From NCBI GenBank assembly GCA_964580435.1, contig CAZOKP010000002.1, positions 2,919 to 66,918 of the forward strand: 64,000 bases of DNA, in the 5' to 3' direction. The notes under the pieces were generated by a model. That model worked only from the letters and a program-made list of their open reading frames with translations, was not told the DNA's origin and made no database searches. The first letter of the stretch is position 1; each line of letters begins with the position of its first letter. Shown piece after piece: positions 2,123 through 12,090 of this stretch. The DNA is from an uncultured Eubacteriales bacterium (GTDB lineage Bacteria; Acidobacteriota; Aminicenantia; Aminicenantales; UBA8522). A program made the position numbers and the translations under genes.

Positions 2123-2812
2123 TTATATCCTCAGATGAATCTTGAGCCGGTCTCCCAGAGCAAAATTCACGGCCACTCTCATCATCATCCCGAGGGAGAG
2201 GGGAGCGGTCACCACTTCGGCCTTTCCTCCCTTTATGGCTGCGATGATCGAAGGAATATTCTTTTCCGCTTCAACCAGGGTGTAAGTGAACCCGACCTGC
2301 CAGATGTTGTGGCAATCGGAGGAGCCGACGAGAGGCTTGTCATGCTCGCGAGCGACCTTGACCGCCCTTTTGTTGCGGTTGATCAAGCGGCTGTAGAAGA
2401 ATGAGAATTCGATGGCGTCGAACGAGGAAATATGCTCTTCGAGTTTTGACCACAAGCACTTGAACCCGGGATAGAAGGGATGGGGGGCGATGATGAGGTT
2501 GAGGTCGGTTTTTATCCTGGCCAGGTCCTCGAGCTCCCTGATTTCGGGAAGGCTGTCAAGAGCGGGGTTGATGATGACCACATGCTTGTGGGAGAGCGTG
2601 AGCTCGACCCCCGGCAAGAGAAGGATTCCGCGTTCCTCGGCGTACCTTTTGAGCTCCGGGCTGAAAGTGACGACATTATGGTTTGTAATGGCAAGGGCAT
2701 CTAATTCCAGGCTGCGAGCCTTATCGATGAGCTCCATCGAGCTGAACCCGATGTAGTCCTGGGGGTCGTCGGCCGTGTGAGTATGGAAATCGACCCTGAG
2801 TTTCTTGGCCAT
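2123..2812 (-). CDS. PHP-domain (polymerase/histidinol-phosphatase-like) metal-dependent phosphoesterase
   Basis: Sequence VDFHTHTADDP...ALAITNHN matches the first PHP His motif. I took the internal ATG at 2812 (MAKKLRV) because the longer ORF to 2965 would overlap the sucD C-terminus. Confidence 0.75.
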   Translation of the reverse strand: MAKKLRVDFHTHTADDPQDYIGFSSMELIDKARSLELDALAITNHNVVTFSPELKRYAEERGILLLPGVELTLSHKHVVIINPALDSLPEIRELEDLARIKTDLNLIIAPHPFYPGFKCLWSKLEEHISSFDAIEFSFFYSRLINRNKRAVKVAREHDKPLVGSSDCHNIWQVGFTYTLVEAEKNIPSIIAAIKGGKAEVVTAPLSLGMMMRVAVNFALGDRLKIHLRI

Positions 2813-2828
2813 CAGCAAGGGGGCCTTT

Positions 2829-3704
2829 TTAGGCTTGAGCCAACGCTTCTTTGACCTTGAGGCCGATCTCCGCCGGGCTTTTGGCCACGAAGACTCCGGC
2901 CGCTTCGAGCGCTTCCATCTTTTCCCTGGCCGTTCCTTTTCCGCCCGAGATGATGGCCCCGGCATGCCCCATGCGCCTTCCCGGAGGAGCGGTCTGGCCG
3001 GCGATGAAGCTCACCACGGGTTTGGGGAACTCTTTTCTAATGTATTCCGCGGCTTCCTCTTCGGCCGTGCCGCCGATCTCTCCGATGAGGATGACGGCCT
3101 CTGTCCCCTTGTCCTTTTTGAACAGCTTGAGCAGGTCAATGTACTTGAGGCCGACGATCGGATCGCCGCCGATGCCGATGGCGGTGGACTGGCCGAAGCC
3201 GACTTTGCTCACCTGCTGGACGGCTTCATAGGTCAGGGTCCCCGAGCGGGAAATGATCCCGATCGTCCCCGGCGTATGGATATGGCCCGGCATGATTCCA
3301 ATCTTGCACCTGCCGGGCGAGATGATTCCCGGGGTGTTGGGCCCGATAAGCGAAACAGGTTTGTCTTTGAGGTAGGCTTTGACTTTGATCATATCAAAGG
3401 TCGGGATGCCCTCGGTGATGCAGACGATGACGCTCACGCCGGCGTCTGCAGCCTCCATGATCGCATCGGCCGCAAAAAATGGCGGAACAAAGATAGCTGC
3501 GGCGTTGGCGCCGGCCTTTTCGACGGCTTCCGCCACCGTGTTGAAAATGGGGACTCCGAGATGGGTCGTGCCGCCTTTTCCCGGCGTCATTCCGGCCACG
3601 ACCTTGGTCCCGTATTCCTGCATCCGCTGCGTGTGGAAAGTCCCTTCTCCGCCCGTGATCCCTTGGACAACGACCCGCGTCTTTTTATCGACCAGGATGC
3701 TCAT
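2829..3704 (-). CDS. sucD: Succinyl-CoA synthetase alpha subunit
   Basis: [24 protein letters not shown] and the catalytic His region GHAGAI are present. A GGAGAAG ribosome-binding site precedes the start. Confidence 0.95.
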
Positions 3705-3721
3705 GGTCTTCTCCTTTTCCT

Positions 3722-4882
3722 CTACGCCTTCGCCAGGGCGACCACTTTTTCGGCCGCTTCCTTCATCGTCTGAGCGGAAGCGAAGGCCAGGCCCGATTCT
3801 TCCAAGATCTTTTTGCCCAGGTCGACGTTGGTGCCCTCGAGCCGGACGACGATCGGGATCTTGGTCCCGAGCTCTTTGGCCGCTTTGACGATCCCGCCGG
3901 CGATCATGTCGCAGCGGACGATCCCGCCGAAAATATTGATCAGCGCCGCTTTGACATCCTTATCAGCAACAAGGATCTTGAAGGCGTTGGTCACGGCTTC
4001 CTCCGTCACACCGCCGCCGACGTCCAGGAAGTTTGCCGGCATACCGCCGGAATATTTGATGATGTCCATGGTGGCCATGGCCAGTCCGGCGCCATTGACC
4101 ATGCAGCCGACATTCCCGTCGAGCTTGATGTAATTGAGGTTGTACTTGGAGGCTTCGACTTCGAGGGGTTCTTCCTCGTACAGGTCCCTCATGGCCTGGA
4201 TATCGGGATGTCGCGGCACCGCGTTGTCATCAAAATTCATCTTGGCATCGAGGGCGAGGACGTTGCCCTGCTTGGTGACGAGGAGAGGGTTGATCTCAGC
4301 GAGGGAGGCATCGCTGGCCTGGAAGGCCTTGTAGAGGCTGGTGATGAACTTGATCGCCTGCTTGTGGGTTTCGCCGCTCAGTCCGAGCTTGAAGGCGAGT
4401 TTTCTGGCCTGAAAGCTCTGGAATCCCGCGGACGGGTCCACCCATTCCTTGAAGATCAGCTCGGGATGTTCGGCGGCGACCTTCTCGATTTCGACTCCGC
4501 CCTCTGTGGATGCCATCACCACGGGCGACTCGTTGGCTCGGTCGATGACGATCCCGATGTAAAGCTCTTTGGCGATGTCCAGAGCCTCCTCGACGAGCAG
4601 CGTTTTGACTTTTTTCCCCTCGGGTCCGGTCTGATGAGTCACTAAGGTCATTCCGATCATCTGCTGGGACAGCCTTTCCGCCTCGTCGGGATTGGCGGCG
4701 AGCTTGATGCCTCCGCCCTTGCCCCGTCCACCCGCGTGAATCTGAGCCTTAAGGACGACGCGGGTGCCGATCCGCTCGGCGATTTCCCGGACTTTGGCCG
4801 GGGTTTCAGCCACATCGCCCCGGGGAATCTGGACGCCGTACTGGCTGAGGATTTTTTTGGCTTGATATTCGTGGATTTTCAC
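3722..4882 (-). CDS. sucC: Succinyl-CoA synthetase beta subunit (GTG start)
   Basis: [17 protein letters not shown] shows an ATP-grasp N-terminus. Start is GTG with a GGAGGT Shine-Dalgarno 7 nt upstream. Confidence 0.95.
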
Positions 4883-5741: not shown

Positions 5742-6683
5742 TTACAGCTTGGTTTCTTCGGTGGTCTTCTTTACAGAAGCGATGGTCTTCTGGAGCAGCG
5801 CATTTTCTTCATCGGTGAGTTTGATCTCGTAGATCTTCTCCAGGCCCTTCGAGGTAATCAGGCAGGGCACTCCGATGAAGAGGCCGTGGATCCCGTATTC
5901 GCCTTCGCAGAGGGCCGCGCAGGCGATGATGCGGCGCTTATCCTTGAGATAGGACTCCGCCATGGTGGCGGCGCTCCAGGCCGGGCTGAAGAAGGCAGAG
6001 CCCTTGCCGAAGAGCTTGACGATCTCTGTGCCCGCTTCGCGCGTCCGGAGAGCCAGCTTGTCGATCTGCTCCTTGGTGGCAATCTCGGCCAGGGGCACAC
6101 CGCCGACGGTCGTCAACCTTGGCAGCGGCACCATATCCGGGCCGTGTCCGCCCAGGACTGTTCCCGCAACGTCAGCCACCGATACGCCAAGCTCCATGGC
6201 GATGAAGGCGCGCCAGCGAGCCGTATCCAGCGCTCCGGCCATACCGACGACCTGGTGTTTGGGGAAACCGGTCTGCTTGTAGAACGCGTAAACCATCGCA
6301 TCGAGGGGATTGGTCAGGATGATGCAGAAGGCTTTGGGCGCATACTGCTTGACACCGTTGGCGACCTCGGTGATGATTTTGAGGTTCACATTGAGCAAGT
6401 CCTCCCGGGTCATCCCGGCCTCGCGGGGCTTGCCCGCAGTAACAATGACCACATCGGCGCCCTCGATATCTTTGTAGTTCGAGGTGCCGCTGATGTTCGC
6501 ATCGTAGTCGCCGTGCGGCGCCATTTCCATCAGGTCGAGGGCCTTGCCCTTGACTGGATTTTCATAGGCGGCGATATCAAGGATAACGATATCTCCCAGT
6601 TCTTTCTGCGAGACGAGCATGGCCAGGATCTGGCCGATCTGGCCTCCACCGATGAGCGCTATCTTTTTTCTCCGATAACTCAT
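5742..6683 (-). CDS. mdh: Malate dehydrogenase (LDH-like MDH family)
   Basis: Rossmann motif KIALIGGGQIGQ and the LDH/MDH-family catalytic region are present. A strong GGAGGAGG ribosome-binding site precedes the start. The gene sits in TCA-cycle context. Confidence 0.9.
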   Translation of the reverse strand: MSYRRKKIALIGGGQIGQILAMLVSQKELGDIVILDIAAYENPVKGKALDLMEMAPHGDYDANISGTSNYKDIEGADVVIVTAGKPREAGMTREDLLNVNLKIITEVANGVKQYAPKAFCIILTNPLDAMVYAFYKQTGFPKHQVVGMAGALDTARWRAFIAMELGVSVADVAGTVLGGHGPDMVPLPRLTTVGGVPLAEIATKEQIDKLALRTREAGTEIVKLFGKGSAFFSPAWSAATMAESYLKDKRRIIACAALCEGEYGIHGLFIGVPCLITSKGLEKIYEIKLTDEENALLQKTIASVKKTTEETKL

Positions 6684-6820
6684 TAAGACCTCCTCCGTAT
6701 TTTATGTATAAAATTGCCCGGGAACGCTCAGAGCTCCCGCAATTTTATTGCGCGCGTTGGCTTAACCACCATAATTTCTTTGTCTTCTATAAACCTATTC
6801 GTCGGTCTTGGGAAATTCAG

Positions 6821-6849
6821 AATATATTTGAATTTACCCGGCGAGTCAA
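6821..6849 (-). promoter_or_regulatory. Candidate sigma70 promoter for mdh (-35 TTGACT, 17-nt spacer, -10 TATATT on the minus strand)
   Basis: Read from the reverse complement of the icd-mdh intergenic region. Nearby 6-3-6 palindrome cgcaat-ttt-attgcg at about 6740-6755. Confidence 0.3.
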
Positions 6850-6902
6850 GCAACATGTCATCGCGAGCTCAGCGCGGTCACCTTATGCACTTAGGGGAAT
6901 CG

Positions 6903-8102
6903 TCATGCCTTGATATAGCCCTCCCACTTGCTCTTGAGCTTCGGATCTTGGAGGGTCTCCAAGAGATAATCCGTGAAGGCCGTTCCGGTCGCGCCATTGG
7001 GACGGCCGGTGATGACGAGCTTCTTTTCATACTGGCCGCAGATGTCGAGCGCCATTTCTAAGTTCTTGCCTCTTTCCGGAAAACCGATGTGGTTGAACAT
7101 CATAGCCGCTGCGCGGATCATGCTGCAAGGGTCGGCATACTGGGCTCTACCTTCCTTCACCATGCGGGGAGCGGAGCCGTGGATCGCCTCGAACATTGCG
7201 TATTGTTTGCCAATGTTGGCGCTTCCGGCCGTGCCGACGCCGCCTTGAAACTCGGCGGCTTCGTCGGTAAGGATGTCGCCGTAGAGGTTGGGGAGGACCA
7301 TAACCTGGAACTCCCGCCGGCGCTTCTCGTCGACGAGCTTGGCGGTCATAATGTCGATATACCAGTCGTCAACCTGGATATCCGGGTATTCTTTGGCGAT
7401 GCGATAAAAATTCTCCAGGAAGCGGCCGTCTGTTGTCTTGACGACGTTGGCTTTGGTGATGCAGGTCACTCGCGTGCGGCCGTTCTTTTTGGCGTGCTCG
7501 AAGGCCAGTCGGCAGATGCGGTCGGCGCCCGGCGCGCTGATCAGGCGGAAGTCGATGGCAATGTCTTGATCGACCTCAATCCCATAGGGGCCGAGAGCGT
7601 ACAGATCCTCGGTGTTTTCTCGGAAAAAGATCCAGTTGATTCCCTGCTTGGGAACCCGGACCGGCCTAACGTTGGCGAAGAGATCCAGTTCTTTCCGCAT
7701 GGCCACATTGCAGCTCTCGATATTCGGCCAGGGGTCGCCCTTTCGAGGCGTGGTCGTGGGGCCTTTGAGGGTGACATGGTATTTTTTGATCTCGGCCAGC
7801 ACGTCATCCGGGATGGGCTTTCCGCAGGCGGCGCGGTTCTCTATGGTCAGGCCCTCGATGTCGTTGATGACAACCTTCCCTTGCTTGACCTCATTCCTGA
7901 GCATGAAATCGAGGACGCGTTTGGCGTCTTTGGCGATGAAGGGGCCGATGCCGTCCCCGCCTATAACGCCGATTTTGATTGGCTTGATTTTGCTGTAGTC
8001 GATCCAATCCGGCGCGGATTTGACCTTCTCCATCCGGTTCATCTGGGCTTCTAGAATCTTGCCGAAATGCTCTTTCGCCCTTTCAATGGCGGCACGATCC
8101 AT
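6903..8102 (-). CDS. icd: Isocitrate dehydrogenase (isocitrate/isopropylmalate dehydrogenase family)
   Basis: Sequences IGVIGGDGIGP and NLYGDILTDEAAEFQGGVGTAGSANIG match the beta-decarboxylating dehydrogenase fold. TCA-cycle context. GGGAGGA ribosome-binding site. Confidence 0.85.
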   Translation of the reverse strand: MDRAAIERAKEHFGKILEAQMNRMEKVKSAPDWIDYSKIKPIKIGVIGGDGIGPFIAKDAKRVLDFMLRNEVKQGKVVINDIEGLTIENRAACGKPIPDDVLAEIKKYHVTLKGPTTTPRKGDPWPNIESCNVAMRKELDLFANVRPVRVPKQGINWIFFRENTEDLYALGPYGIEVDQDIAIDFRLISAPGADRICRLAFEHAKKNGRTRVTCITKANVVKTTDGRFLENFYRIAKEYPDIQVDDWYIDIMTAKLVDEKRRREFQVMVLPNLYGDILTDEAAEFQGGVGTAGSANIGKQYAMFEAIHGSAPRMVKEGRAQYADPCSMIRAAAMMFNHIGFPERGKNLEMALDICGQYEKKLVITGRPNGATGTAFTDYLLETLQDPKLKSKWEGYIKA

Positions 8103-8208
8103 AATTATTCCTCCCTTGAATTTATAGTTTTATCATGAAAATGAAACCCAAATTCTATACTTTTGACCAACGAAAATCAATTAAATTTCCGACGTGTGTC
8201 CGTGTCAA

Positions 8209-8238
8209 CTTGATTAAATCGCCGGAAAACAGTATGAT
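8209..8238 (+). promoter_or_regulatory. Candidate promoter for hicBA (-35 TTGATT, 18-nt spacer, -10 TATGAT)
   Basis: Lies in the AT-rich divergent intergenic region between icd and hicB. A GAGGTGG Shine-Dalgarno precedes the hicB ATG. Confidence 0.3.
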
Positions 8239-8259
8239 CTCCATCAACGAGGTGGAAAA

Positions 8260-8472
8260 ATGCCAAGGTCCTTTACTTTAGAATACTGGCAGGATGAGGG
8301 TTGGTTTGTTGGAAGATTGAAAGAAGTCCCGGGCATTTTCAGCCAGGGAGAAACCCTTGAAGACCTGAAGGTCAATATCCTTGAAGCCTACCGTTTGATG
8401 ATTGACGAAGAAAAAAAAGTCCTGTCCGCCGTCGTCAAAAACAGAATCAAAGCCATTCAGGTCGAAGTATGA
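8260..8472 (+). CDS. hicB: Type II toxin-antitoxin system HicB-family antitoxin (short form, no DNA-binding domain)
   Basis: MPRSFTLEYWQDEGWFVGRLKEVPGIFSQGETLEDLKVNILEAYRLM matches the HicB/UPF0150 N-terminal domain. Its stop overlaps the hicA start (ATGA). Confidence 0.75.
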   Translation: MPRSFTLEYWQDEGWFVGRLKEVPGIFSQGETLEDLKVNILEAYRLMIDEEKKVLSAVVKNRIKAIQVEV

Positions 8473-8648
8473 AGAGAGAAACCTTTATCAAAGAGCTCCG
8501 TGAAGCCAAGCGCTATCTGAAGCGCCAGGGAACGAATCATGATATCTTTTTTAATCCGAAAACAAGCCGCAAAGCTGCTGTGCCTCATCACCCAGAAATC
8601 AAGAATACTTTGTGCGCTTTGATCAGGAAGCAGCTGGGATTGGGATAG
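8469..8648 (+). CDS. hicA: Type II toxin-antitoxin system HicA-family mRNA interferase toxin (59 aa, below the ORF-track cutoff)
   Basis: Manual translation gives MKRETFIKELREAKRYLKRQGTNHDIFFNPKTSRKAAVPHHPEIKNTLCALIRKQLGLG. This aligns with E. coli HicA (…GSNHLKLRFHGRRSVMPRHPCDEIKEPLRKAILKQLGL). Confidence 0.8.
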   Translation: MKRETFIKELREAKRYLKRQGTNHDIFFNPKTSRKAAVPHHPEIKNTLCALIRKQLGLG

Positions 8649-8710
8649 AATCGGCCTCCCCGGAGTGAGTTCTTAAGGCGGCGAATCCTCGCCCGATTAT
8701 AACTTGGGGG

Positions 8711-9355
8711 CTATTTTCGCAGCAGCTTGAAAGCGTGATTCCAGGTGCCGGAGCGGACCCCGTAAAGGATCCAGAGCATGGCCAAAGGTTCAAGCAGCCG
8801 CGCTCCCTCGATCCCGCCGATATCGATCACTGGCCAGCCGAAGTCAGAACAAATCTCGGTCACCTTTGCCTTCGCCGCTTTGTCATTTCCACAAATGAAC
8901 ATATCCGGCGGACCGCCCGGGAATTGGGGAGTGACCATATGAGCATTGCCGATCATATTGAATACTTTAATCACTCGCGCCTCGGGCAGCCAGCGTTGGA
9001 CTTGTTCGCCCGCCGAATCCGTGTGACCAAGGGCCAGAGCGGGCGGAGCATCCGGATAGAAAATGAGGGGATTGGTAGTATCCATGACTGTTTTGCCCGC
9101 AAGATTCTTGGGGTTGGCCAACCGGATCGCATTTTCTGTCCCACTCCAGAGAGTCGCCAATACGGCGAGCTCCGCAAAAGAGGCCGCCTCTTGGAATGTC
9201 CCGGCCGATGCGCGCGGCCCGTTCTTGGCCACCCAGGCCTTAATCTTTTCGCTATTGGGGTCGCGCGTGCCCATCTTGACGTCGTGACCGAGCGCGGCGA
9301 ATTCGCTCCCCAGCTTCTGCCCGACATCTCCACTTCCTAATATGCCTATCTTCAT
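8711..9355 (-). CDS. NADPH-dependent F420 reductase-like NAD(P)-binding oxidoreductase
   Basis: MKIGILGSGDVGQKLG Rossmann motif indicates the F420_oxidored/ProC-like family. I used the internal ATG at 9355 rather than the ORF-track start at 9451. Confidence 0.75.
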   Translation of the reverse strand: MKIGILGSGDVGQKLGSEFAALGHDVKMGTRDPNSEKIKAWVAKNGPRASAGTFQEAASFAELAVLATLWSGTENAIRLANPKNLAGKTVMDTTNPLIFYPDAPPALALGHTDSAGEQVQRWLPEARVIKVFNMIGNAHMVTPQFPGGPPDMFICGNDKAAKAKVTEICSDFGWPVIDIGGIEGARLLEPLAMLWILYGVRSGTWNHAFKLLRK

Positions 9356-9387: not shown

Positions 9388-9418
9388 AATATATTTCCGG
9401 CGAGGCTATTTTGTCAAC
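9388..9418 (-). promoter_or_regulatory. Candidate divergent promoter for the F420-reductase-like gene (-35 TTGACA, -10 TATATT on the minus strand)
   Basis: The TTGTCAA/TTGACAA inverted pair in the 152-bp divergent intergenic region supplies -35 boxes in both directions. Confidence 0.25.
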
Positions 9419-9434
9419 GGCTTGAAAAATGATT

Positions 9435-9463
9435 TTGACAAAAGTGTTCAAACATTTTATACA
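9435..9463 (+). promoter_or_regulatory. Candidate sigma70 promoter for acnB (-35 TTGACA, 17-nt spacer, -10 TATACA)
   Basis: Sequence ttgacaaaagtgttcaaacattttataca lies about 75 nt upstream of the acnB start. Confidence 0.35.
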
Positions 9464-9537
9464 GTTTAAGTTAAAGATAAGGACGGTTCGGGAAAGCGAG
9501 CCGCCCTGTGCATTATGACGTGAACGGAGTGATGGCC

Positions 9538-12090
9538 ATGTTAGAATCCTATTTTAAACAGGAAGCCGAAAGGCAAAACCAAGGGATCCCGCCTTTGCCC
9601 CTCGACCCGGACGAGACCGCCGAGGTCTGCCGGTACCTTGAAAGCCCGCCTGAAGGCAAGGAGGAGCTTCTGCTCCAGCTCTTGAAGAACCGCGTCTCGC
9701 CGGGTGTCGACCCGGCCGCGAAGGTCAAGGCCGAATGGCTGGCCAAGGTCGCCCGAGCCCAGGTTCATTCTCCCGTCGTCACCAAAAAAGAAGCCGTCAT
9801 TCTCCTGGGAACGATGCTCGGCGGATACAACATCAATCCGCTTGTTGAATGTCTCGATGGCCCTGAAGTCGCGCCGGAGGCAGCTAAAGCCTTGAAGCAT
9901 ACCATTCTTGTTTATGGCGCCTTTGATACGGTTGCTGAGAAATCGAAGGCGAATCCTTTCGCCAAAGAAGTCCTCCTATCCTGGGCCAATGGCGAATGGT
10001 TCCTTGCCAGGCCTGCACTCCCGGAAGAATTTACGCTCAAGGTGTTCAAGGTCGACGGCGAGATCAACACCGATGATTTTTCCCCGGCTAAAAATGCCTG
10101 GAGCCGGCCGGATATCCCTCTCCACGCTCTTTCTATGGGCGAGACGCGATTTCCGGGAGGGCTGGCCACGATCAAGAAATTCCGCGAGGAAGGGTACAGC
10201 GTTGTTTTCGTCGGTGACGTCGTCGGCACAGGCTCTTCAAGAAAGTCCGCCTGCAACTCCTTGATGTGGCATATCGGCGAGGACATTCCCTTCATCCCAA
10301 ATAAACGGCGGGCCGGGGTGGTCATCGGAGGTCTGATCGCGCCGATATTCTTCAACACCACGGAGGATTCCGGCGGGCTGCCGCTCCTGGCAGATGTGGG
10401 GAAATTAAAAACGGGCGATGTCATCACCATCGAGACGAAAACCGGCCTTATCAAGAGCGAGGCCGGGGAGAGGATCGCTGCATTTGAATTCAAGCCCCCG
10501 ACCATCAGGGATGAGTACCGGGCCGGGGGCCGCCTCAACCTGATCATCGGCCGCGCTCTGACCAACAAAGCCCGCACAGCCCTCGGGCTGCCAGAGGCGG
10601 AAATGTTCACCCTGCCCGAGAACCCGAAACCCAAGCGGGGGCAAGGATATTCCTTAGCCCAAAAGATAGTCGGGAAGGCCTGTGGCAGCAAAGGAATCCT
10701 GCCAGGAAGCGCCTGCGAGCCCAAGATGACGACTGTCGGTTCTCAGGATACGACGGGGCCGATGACAGCCGAAGAGCTCAAAGAGCTGGCCTGCCTTGAA
10801 TTCCAGGCCGAGATGTTCATGCAATCGTTCTGTCATACTGCGGCCTATCCGAAGGGGTCCGACGTTAAAATGCACAAGACCCTCCCGCAGTTCATTATCG
10901 ACCGCAAAGGCGTCGCTCTCAAGCCCGGCGACGGTGTTATCCATACCTGGCTGAACAGGCTCATATTGCCGGACACCATGGGCACGGGCGGCGACTCCCA
11001 CACGCGTTTTCCTCTCGGACTCAGCCTGCCTGCTGGTTCCGGGCTTGTCGCTTTTGCCGGGGCCTTAGGGTTTATGCCGCTGGATATGCCCGAGTCCGTC
11101 CTGGTTAAATTCAAAGGCAAGCTGAATCCCGGCATTACGCTGCGGGATGCCGTCAACGCTATCCCGTATTTCGCCATTAAACAAGGCCTTCTGACCGTGG
11201 CCAAGAAAGGGAAGAAAAATGTTTTCAACGGCCGGATTCTTGAGATGGAAGGGCTGGAGGACCTGACTGTCGAGCAAGCCTACGAGCTGACCAATGCGTC
11301 GGCTGAAAGGTCGGCGGCCGGAGCGGTCATCTCCCTCAACGAGGGGAGTATCGCCAGGTATTTGAGGAGCAATGTCGCCCTGATGGAAAGGATGATCGAA
11401 GAAGGCTACGAGTGCGCGGCGACGCTCAAGAAGCGAATCAAGGCCTCGAAAAAATGGCTCAAGAAGCCCAGGCTCCTCAAAAGAGACCCGAAGGCGGAGT
11501 ATGCGGCGGTCATCGAGGTCGACCTCGCCGAGATCCGGGAGCCGCTCCTGGCCTGTCCCAATGATCCCGATGACGTGAAGCCTCTTCGAGAAGTCGCCGG
11601 CGACAGGATCGACGAAGTTTTCATCGGCTCCTGCATGACCAATATCGGTCATTTCCGTGCCGCCGGCAGGATTTTTGAGGGCGCGGGCTATGCCAGGACG
11701 CGGGTTTGGCTGACGCCGCCGACGAAAATGGATGTGGCTCAATTGATGAGGGAAGGTTTCTATTCCATCTATTCTTCGATCGGGGCGCGCACGGAGATTC
11801 CCGGCTGCTCTCTCTGCATGGGAAACCAGGCCAGGGTAAGCCCCGGCGCTACGGTCATCTCCACGTCGACGCGCAATTTCGATGACCGGATGGGGGACGG
11901 AGCGAGGGTTTATCTGGGCTCCGCAGAATTGGCCGCTGTGGCCGCAATCAAGGGCCATCTCCCCAAGCCCGAGGAATACCTCTCGATTGTGACAGAAAAG
12001 CTCCTGCCTAATCAGGACAAGATCTACCGCTATCTGCAGTTCGATGAGATGGGAGATTTTACTCTCCACTACACGGGCGCCAGGTTCTGA
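9538..12090 (+). CDS. acnB: Aconitate hydratase B (bifunctional aconitase 2 / 2-methylisocitrate dehydratase)
   Basis: About 850 aa with an N-terminal HEAT-like domain and an aconitase catalytic domain ([13 protein letters not shown]). The likely start is MLESYFKQ, which has a GGAG Shine-Dalgarno. The ORF track extends to 9508. Confidence 0.9.

Follow-up and report, generated by a model that had tools for sequence, protein, structure and literature searches.

A probable Class 2 hicBA toxin-antitoxin module inserted between icd and acnB in a clade of Candidatus Aminicenantes

The window analysed here, a 64,000-nucleotide stretch of DNA from a Candidatus Aminicenantes bacterium, carries a small hicB-hicA cassette, most probably a type II toxin-antitoxin module of Class 2 (hicBA) that is functional and has been inherited vertically. 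Comparison with related genomes showed that hicBA entered the gap between the divergent genes icd and acnB once, in the ancestor of a clade of four lineages, and that the insertion is old. Purifying selection on hicBA since the insertion is as strong as that on icd. The cassette exists as had been predicted and is probably active.

Organization of the hicBA locus

The first gene, hicB (8260-8472, plus strand), encodes a protein of 70 amino acids that is predicted to consist of the HicB N-terminal domain alone (partial RNase H-like/UPF0150), and the second, hicA (8469-8648, plus strand), encodes a predicted HicA-family toxin of 59 amino acids with a dsRBD-like RNase fold. The original prediction of a hicB-hicA cassette at 8206-8648 was borne out by the open reading frames found at these coordinates, by the Pfam match of HicA (29.7 bits to HicA_toxin) and by the recurrent pairing of the two genes at other loci. 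The stop codon of hicB and the start codon of hicA share the sequence ATGA (8469-8472), the overlap that had been predicted, and hicA had indeed been passed over by the 60-residue threshold of the open reading frame list, which it misses by a single residue. A ribosome-binding site (GAGGTGG, 8249-8255, plus strand) was read from the sequence 4 nt 5' of the hicB ATG, and a consensus scan placed a sigma-70-like promoter-like site for hicBA at 8210-8238 on the plus strand (TTGATT-17 nt-TATGAT). The scan also returned a terminator-like hairpin between hicA and the convergent reductase gene (8692-8708, plus strand), which is weak and doubtful; such sites were no commoner than in shuffled sequences, and the region folded no better than shuffled sequence (z 0.93).

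On the 5' side of the cassette lies a gene for an Iso_dh-family dehydrogenase (6903-8102, minus strand), whose product scored below every NCBIfam equivalog cut-off despite a Pfam Iso_dh match of 4e-68. The gene is probably icd, a name that is supported by its location within a cluster of TCA cycle genes (sucCD-fumarate hydratase-mdh-icd). Its promoter-like site, found in the consensus scan (TTGATT-17 nt-TAGAAT, 8152-8180, minus strand), stands back to back with that of hicBA, the two -35 hexamers being 29 bp apart. On the 3' side and convergent with hicA is a gene for an F420_oxidored-family NADP oxidoreductase (8711-9355, minus strand; 214 amino acids according to the gene callers), which matched its Pfam family at 2e-14 and scored 58 bits for npdG against a cut-off of 150. 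The reductase gene adjoins acnB (9508-12090, plus strand). A promoter-like site of acnB (TTGACA-17 nt-TATACA, 9435-9463, plus strand) was read from the sequence; the scan tool missed it because its -10 hexamer ends in A.

The syntenic orthologues L005, L010 and L014 have kept the -35 and -10 hexamers of the putative hicBA promoter and a spacer motif (CGGAAAAC), and the ribosome-binding motif GAGGTG is invariant across the four hicBA lineages. A similar promoter (cTTGnnn...aaacagTATGATtt) precedes the closest non-syntenic homologues (L102, L105 and L107-L109). These patterns support the earlier proposal that the cassette has its own promoter-like TTGATT/TATGAT, and we infer promoter function for the site from matches to a simple consensus, in a phylum whose promoters are uncharacterised. 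An operator search between 8090 and 8275 returned only two weak 9-nt inverted repeats (89%) and one 12-nt direct repeat, and none of these repeats near the hicBA promoter is regarded as evidence for an operator. The direct repeat (ATTAAATTTCCG at 8180-8191 and ATTAAATCGCCG at 8213-8224) extends over most of the hicBA -35 hexamer and into the edge of that of icd, and it is poorly conserved in L005.

HicA belongs to a family of characterised toxins

HicA scored 29.7 bits on Pfam HicA_toxin (PF07927), for which the cut-off is 27 (E 7e-7, 54 of the 59 residues covered), and matched PHROG 353, annotated "toxin", at 3e-14; neither HicA nor HicB matched any NCBIfam model. HMMER detected 114 relatives of HicA at E≤1e-3 when the complete set of 1.84 billion representative proteins was scanned. 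Single sequences were too weak to use in searches of the PDB and profiles were required. The HicA family profile, which was made from 38 relatives and included no PDB sequence, had four solved HicA toxins as its first PDB matches (6hpb_A at 2.9e-4, 4c26 at 8.4e-4, 6g26_E at 2e-3 and 5yrz_B at 0.03). The AF2 model of HicA had a pLDDT of 94 and comprised the elements H3-12, E16-20, E24-29, E34-39 and H46-55. Its best seven Foldseek matches in the PDB were six chains of characterised HicA toxins and TTHA1913 (1whz), and it superimposed on 6hpb_A and 6g26 with TM scores of 0.79-0.85 and an rmsd of 1.3-1.4 Å.

Gly21, His24, Pro39 and His41 are each conserved to at least 90%, a figure that for Gly21 and His24 refers to 38 homologues. 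Gly21 and His24 lie in the beta1-beta2 loop and are nearly invariant in the family. His24 aligned with the His of the G-S-N-H motif of Escherichia coli HicA and with the position of the H24A substitution in Burkholderia pseudomallei 4c26; toxicity of the B. pseudomallei protein requires His24 and Gly22 (PMC3969222). The resemblance to E. coli HicA that had been described from the sequence (G-S/T-N-H and P-H-H-P...KQLGL) could be seen in the alignment to 6hpb_A. Absence of the catalytic His from such an alignment had been named in advance as an argument against an active mRNA interferase, and the residue is present in the window and kept in all four hicBA lineages (window, L005, L010 and L014).

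HicB represents a divergent subfamily without a DNA-binding domain

Two Pfam families were tested for HicB (PF15919 and PF21748), and the window protein alone scored below threshold for both (UPF0150, 20.6 against 27.3; HicB_lk, 17.8 against 27), so that the Pfam search suggested in the original prediction supported HicA and fell short for HicB. The family as a whole was recognized: in an alignment of 54 sequences with 18 invariant columns, 53 members matched UPF0150 and 52 matched HicB_lk at E≤0.01, the best at 5.9e-7. The sub-threshold score of the single protein, taken with the matches of its family, marks HicB as part of a divergent subfamily of the clan rather than a clean Pfam member. 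More than 570 homologues were found, nearly all of 67-70 amino acids; several are labelled HicB-family antitoxin by NCBI or JGI and several carry a precomputed PF21748 match. The N-terminal 47 residues of HicB are almost unchanged across proteins labelled Patescibacteria, Aminicenantes, Blastocatellia and Nitrososphaera (loci L100-L179).

Searched against the PDB, the HicB family profile had TTHA0281 (2dsy; E 8e-4) and B. pseudomallei HicB (E 0.05) among its matches. The AF2 model of HicB was a beta-beta-beta-alpha fold with an overall pLDDT of 70; the modelled part reached 72-87, and the C-terminal 16 residues (55-70) were below 50, with the last strand unmodelled. Its top Foldseek matches in the PDB were mostly HicB N-domains (6g1c, 6g26, 4p78 and 6hpb_B) or UPF0150 proteins, TTHA0281 included, with probabilities of 0.9-1.0 but weak E-values (0.03-1), as expected for a query of 70 residues. 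The model fitted 6g1c_B and 6g26_A with an rmsd of 0.9-1.7 Å over 51 columns. No RHH or HTH domain of HicB was detected in Pfam at E≤1, and the AF2 model is a single domain with a short tail, in agreement with the earlier description of a bare HicB/UPF0150 domain. On the basis of its family, its predicted fold and its frequent HicA partner, HicB is grouped with HicB N-terminal domains.

The partner was identified in a survey of 80 metagenome loci (L100-L179) retrieved with the HicB family alignment, 73 of which had room downstream of hicB. An open reading frame matching the HicA profile followed hicB immediately on the same strand at 58 of these 73 loci, and the 4-nt overlap of the window recurred at 44 of the 58, all unrelated metagenome loci. 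The lengths of the HicB proteins at the metagenome loci cluster at 67-72 amino acids. In the syntenic orthologues hicA stands beside hicB, co-oriented, without exception. Downstream of the other 15 of the 73 HicB-like genes no co-oriented HicA could be detected, which shows that members of the family do not always come with HicA. One of these 15 loci, L151, has a HicA gene that directly adjoins hicB but lies on the opposite strand.

Comparison with known hicBA systems

Gerdes (2024; PMC10865869, mBio 15:e03293-23) sorted the genetic contexts of HicA into 14 classes. Class 2 hicBA loci encode a HicB of 60-90 amino acids with no identifiable DNA-binding domain, and their genes usually overlap; together with Class 1, they are the most prevalent, their regulation was flagged as an open question and, up to 2024, none of them had been put to an experimental test (Gerdes, 2024). 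The window cassette has every structural feature by which Class 2 is defined: hicB precedes and overlaps hicA, and the 70-residue HicB falls within the range of 60-90 and has no DNA-binding domain. The short HicB, which the original prediction had treated as unusual, is thus a defining trait of an already described and prevalent class and no oddity. HicBs without a DNA-binding domain have also been called common in a 2024 review. The window differs from the class description in that HicA, at 59 residues, is one residue under the quoted range of 60-85, and in that the N-terminal half of HicB is unusually conserved in its subfamily (FTLEYWxDEGWFVGRLKEVPGVFSQGETL). As far as we could find, the Aminicenantes host and the icd/acnB site are undescribed for Class 2 hicBA.

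With the characterised HicAB systems of E. coli K-12 (6HPB) and B. pseudomallei (6G26, 4C26), the window HicA has in common its fold, a catalytic loop of the form G-x-(x)-H and KQLGL at the C terminus; the beta-beta-beta-alpha part modelled for HicB resembles their HicB N-domains. In both of them, however, the gene order is hicA-hicB (Classes 3 and 4 of Gerdes), the reverse of that in the window, and HicB has about 140 amino acids, with a C-terminal HTH or RHH domain that represses the operon and is absent from the window HicB. The hallmark of Classes 3 and 4, an HTH or RHH domain of HicB acting on palindromic operators, accordingly finds no counterpart among the domains of the window HicB. 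Stand-alone HicB-type domains of about 70-87 amino acids are known from Thermus thermophilus, namely the UPF0150 proteins TTHA0281 (2DSY), which is the best PDB match of the HicB family profile, and TTHA1013 (1WV8). These proteins are among the top fold matches, although sequence identity to them is only about 20-27%. The HicBA system of Streptococcus pneumoniae (5YRZ) resembles the window in having the antitoxin gene first and in its HicA, which the HicA profile matches at E 0.03; it differs in that its HicB binds DNA through an RHH domain and in the greater length of its HicA chain (89 residues in the PDB entry).

Predicted function of the module

The hicB and hicA genes would be transcribed as one bicistronic mRNA from the cassette promoter at 8210-8238, and hicB would be translated from its strong ribosome-binding site. 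The ATGA overlap would couple translation of hicA to that of hicB, so that the toxin would not be made without the antitoxin. HicA is predicted to be a small ribonuclease of dsRBD fold that uses His24, as do the HicA proteins of E. coli and B. pseudomallei, and to stop growth through RNA cleavage. As seen in the HicAB complexes that have been solved, HicB would attach to HicA so as to shield the active face of the toxin. Since HicB has neither an RHH nor an HTH domain, the classical circuit of autorepression that excess toxin relieves should not be available, and expression would most likely be set by the strength of a constitutive promoter, by translational coupling and by the relative stability of the two proteins.

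The main purpose of a module of this kind might be abortive infection against phages, in which infected cells are killed or arrested. Such a role is compatible with the predicted mechanism. Gerdes (2024; PMC10865869) argued from genetic contexts for a defence role of HicA domains, and the match of HicA to PHROG 353 is a match to a phage-protein family. No PADLOC defence model was matched, however, the neighbours are housekeeping TCA genes rather than a defence island, and the HicB family alignment found no matches among viral contigs, a search that was also negative with regard to a phage origin of the genes. Abortive infection as the main task of the pair is therefore unlikely, and a Class 2 toxin-antitoxin module remains the favoured description of the cassette.

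Insertion history and selection

The history of the locus was reconstructed from a scan of genomes with the icd protein, which yielded 80 species representatives, mostly Candidatus Aminicenantes, and from a survey of their icd-acnB junctions by tblastn of the window proteins on all loci and by measurement of the gap. In 44 species icd and acnB were adjacent and divergent. They were direct divergent neighbours, 113-449 bp apart, in 41 of the 44, and neither hicBA nor the reductase was detected by tblastn at any of the 80 species-representative loci. The contigs that encode the window hicBA proteins and their close variants share the window's neighbourhood. In a neighbour-joining tree of icd, acnB and mdh, the four hicBA-bearing lineages (window, L005, L010 and L014; concatenated identity to the window, 85-93%) formed one clade, and this monophyly indicates a single acquisition. 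Insertion, as had been proposed, was thus supported by the empty junctions of related species, but its site was not the icd-reductase junction of the original prediction: the reductase is missing from all genomes with an empty site, so that the ancestral junction was that of icd and acnB. The stretch from the icd -35 block to the hicBA -35 hexamer, where the boundary of the insertion was sought, does not align with empty sites.

Purifying selection has acted on both genes. The dN/dS values were 0.04-0.075 for hicB and 0.03-0.25 for hicA, compared with 0.04-0.066 for icd; synonymous sites were close to saturation. The clade offers a natural series for the regulation question raised by Gerdes, since it combines four diverged orthologues and a conserved promoter with relatives whose site is empty.

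A foreign origin of hicBA is indicated by its base composition and by the promoter that it has in common with non-syntenic homologues. The GC content of the cassette is 0.45-0.46 and its GC3 is 0.53, compared with a GC of 0.57 and a GC3 of 0.70-0.75 in the flanking genes; each of the four lineages shows a lower GC in the cassette than in icd and acnB, and each except L005 and L014 a lower GC3 as well. The putative promoter is conserved in the orthologues and resembles that of homologues in unrelated contexts, and it therefore most likely arrived with the genes. The possibility that the hicBA promoter is the displaced ancestral promoter of acnB was considered and rejected for the window, where acnB keeps a TTGACA/TATACA promoter of the ancestral type and the hicBA promoter resembles those of the non-syntenic homologues.

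The icd-acnB gap and the TCA cycle genes

The placement of the cassette beside TCA genes raises the question of whether it acts on them. As a domesticated regulator, HicA and its partner would control the flanking genes, for example by cutting the icd or acnB transcripts or by sharing the transcription of acnB. Consistent with such a role, hicBA has been held at one locus in four lineages under selection as strong as that on icd, and the -35 hexamers of hicBA and icd are close together. The L014-L017 genomes, moreover, have neither the reductase nor a recognisable acnB promoter. In L014, 103 nt separate hicA from acnB (4090-4194), and a simple consensus scan found no promoter-like or terminator-like site in them, which suggests that transcription of acnB may start at the hicBA promoter in this lineage.

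Most of the comparative evidence points the other way. The window acnB has a promoter-like site of its own that resembles TTTTGACAAA...TTATACAC of the empty-site species L021 and L022, and a convergent gene lies between hicA and acnB. The icd promoter block (ATTxTAT...AAAATCAA) is invariant in ten of ten aligned species, genomes with an empty site included, and so is unchanged whether the gap is empty or occupied. The cassette also occurs with a similar promoter in unrelated contexts, and resistance to loss is expected of an addictive module even if it has no host function. The apparent absence of an acnB promoter from the L014-type genomes, for its part, comes from the same simple consensus scan in a phylum whose promoters are uncharacterised. 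Sister species, finally, hold unrelated toxin-antitoxin families at the junction. Control of the flanking TCA genes by hicBA is thus very unlikely, and the earlier suggestion that toxin expression could be coupled to the promoter context of icd finds no support, given the unchanged icd block and the other toxin-antitoxin pairs at this site.

Inserts of about 3-3.8 kb were found in three of the 44 junctions (L023, L024 and L025). The L023 insert contains a GDSL-lipase-like gene. In the L024 insert a Phd/YefM and PIN (VapC-like) pair lies directly upstream of icd (6234-6913), and the L025 insert contains an MNT nucleotidyltransferase and HepT pair (2640-3480); both pairs were confirmed with Pfam. 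A Phd/YefM and PIN pair also stands directly upstream of icd in L029 (310-989), a contig that stops short of acnB and is outside the 44. The presence of three unrelated toxin-antitoxin families in one gap suggests a permissive, insertion-prone site rather than a tie to the TCA cycle, and the icd-acnB gap does look permissive for insertion. It also suggests that the gaps between divergent core genes are recurrent landing sites. Common to the inserts of L024 and L025 is a gene whose product is a protein of 455-460 amino acids with an N-terminal HTH-like motif and FG-GAP repeats (L024, 3580-4962; L025, 1276-2643), of which L025 has a second, partial copy (3635-4465).

We give very little credence to the stronger readings, in which hicBA has been recruited at the TCA locus to serve the host, or the icd-acnB gap is a hot spot to which toxin-antitoxin capture is specifically directed by an unspecified targeting mechanism. 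Had such recruitment taken place, a TCA-cycle operon in the L014-type lineage, where the hicBA promoter appears to be the only recognisable one 5' of acnB, would begin with the genes of a toxin RNase and its antitoxin, and expression of aconitase and isocitrate dehydrogenase would be tied to toxin-antitoxin dynamics. Insertion of a Class 2 module into a permissive gap is the reading that we prefer.

Loss of the reductase and persistence of hicBA

The reductase gene is a second, separate accessory gene in the junction and is decaying or deleted in two of the lineages. The copies of the window and L005 are intact. The L010 copy (6498-7142) is without its start and GxGxxG motif, those of L011-L012 (6498-7142) and L013 (3620-4264) have two in-frame stops, and L014-L017 have no copy at all; hicBA is intact in all lineages, L010-L017 included. 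The tree and this distribution place the reductase in the ancestor of the clade and indicate that it is now being lost while hicBA is kept. The durability of hicBA beside a decaying reductase shows how far an addictive module can outlast an ordinary accessory gene.

That the pair is an inactive remnant with a truncated hicB, as might be supposed from the sub-threshold Pfam scores of HicB, from its lack of a domain for DNA binding and from the report that some short HicBs are products of truncation (Gerdes, 2024; PMC10865869), is scarcely credible given the more than 570 homologues of 67-70 amino acids, the 18 invariant columns of the 54-sequence alignment, the strong purifying selection on both genes, the catalytic His of all four lineages and the adjacent reductase, which shows what decay looks like at this locus.

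The reductase gene of the window is bracketed by an imperfect 24-nt direct repeat (20 of 24 positions; 8709-8732 and 9404-9427). L005 has one copy only, and the repeat is therefore probably due to chance.
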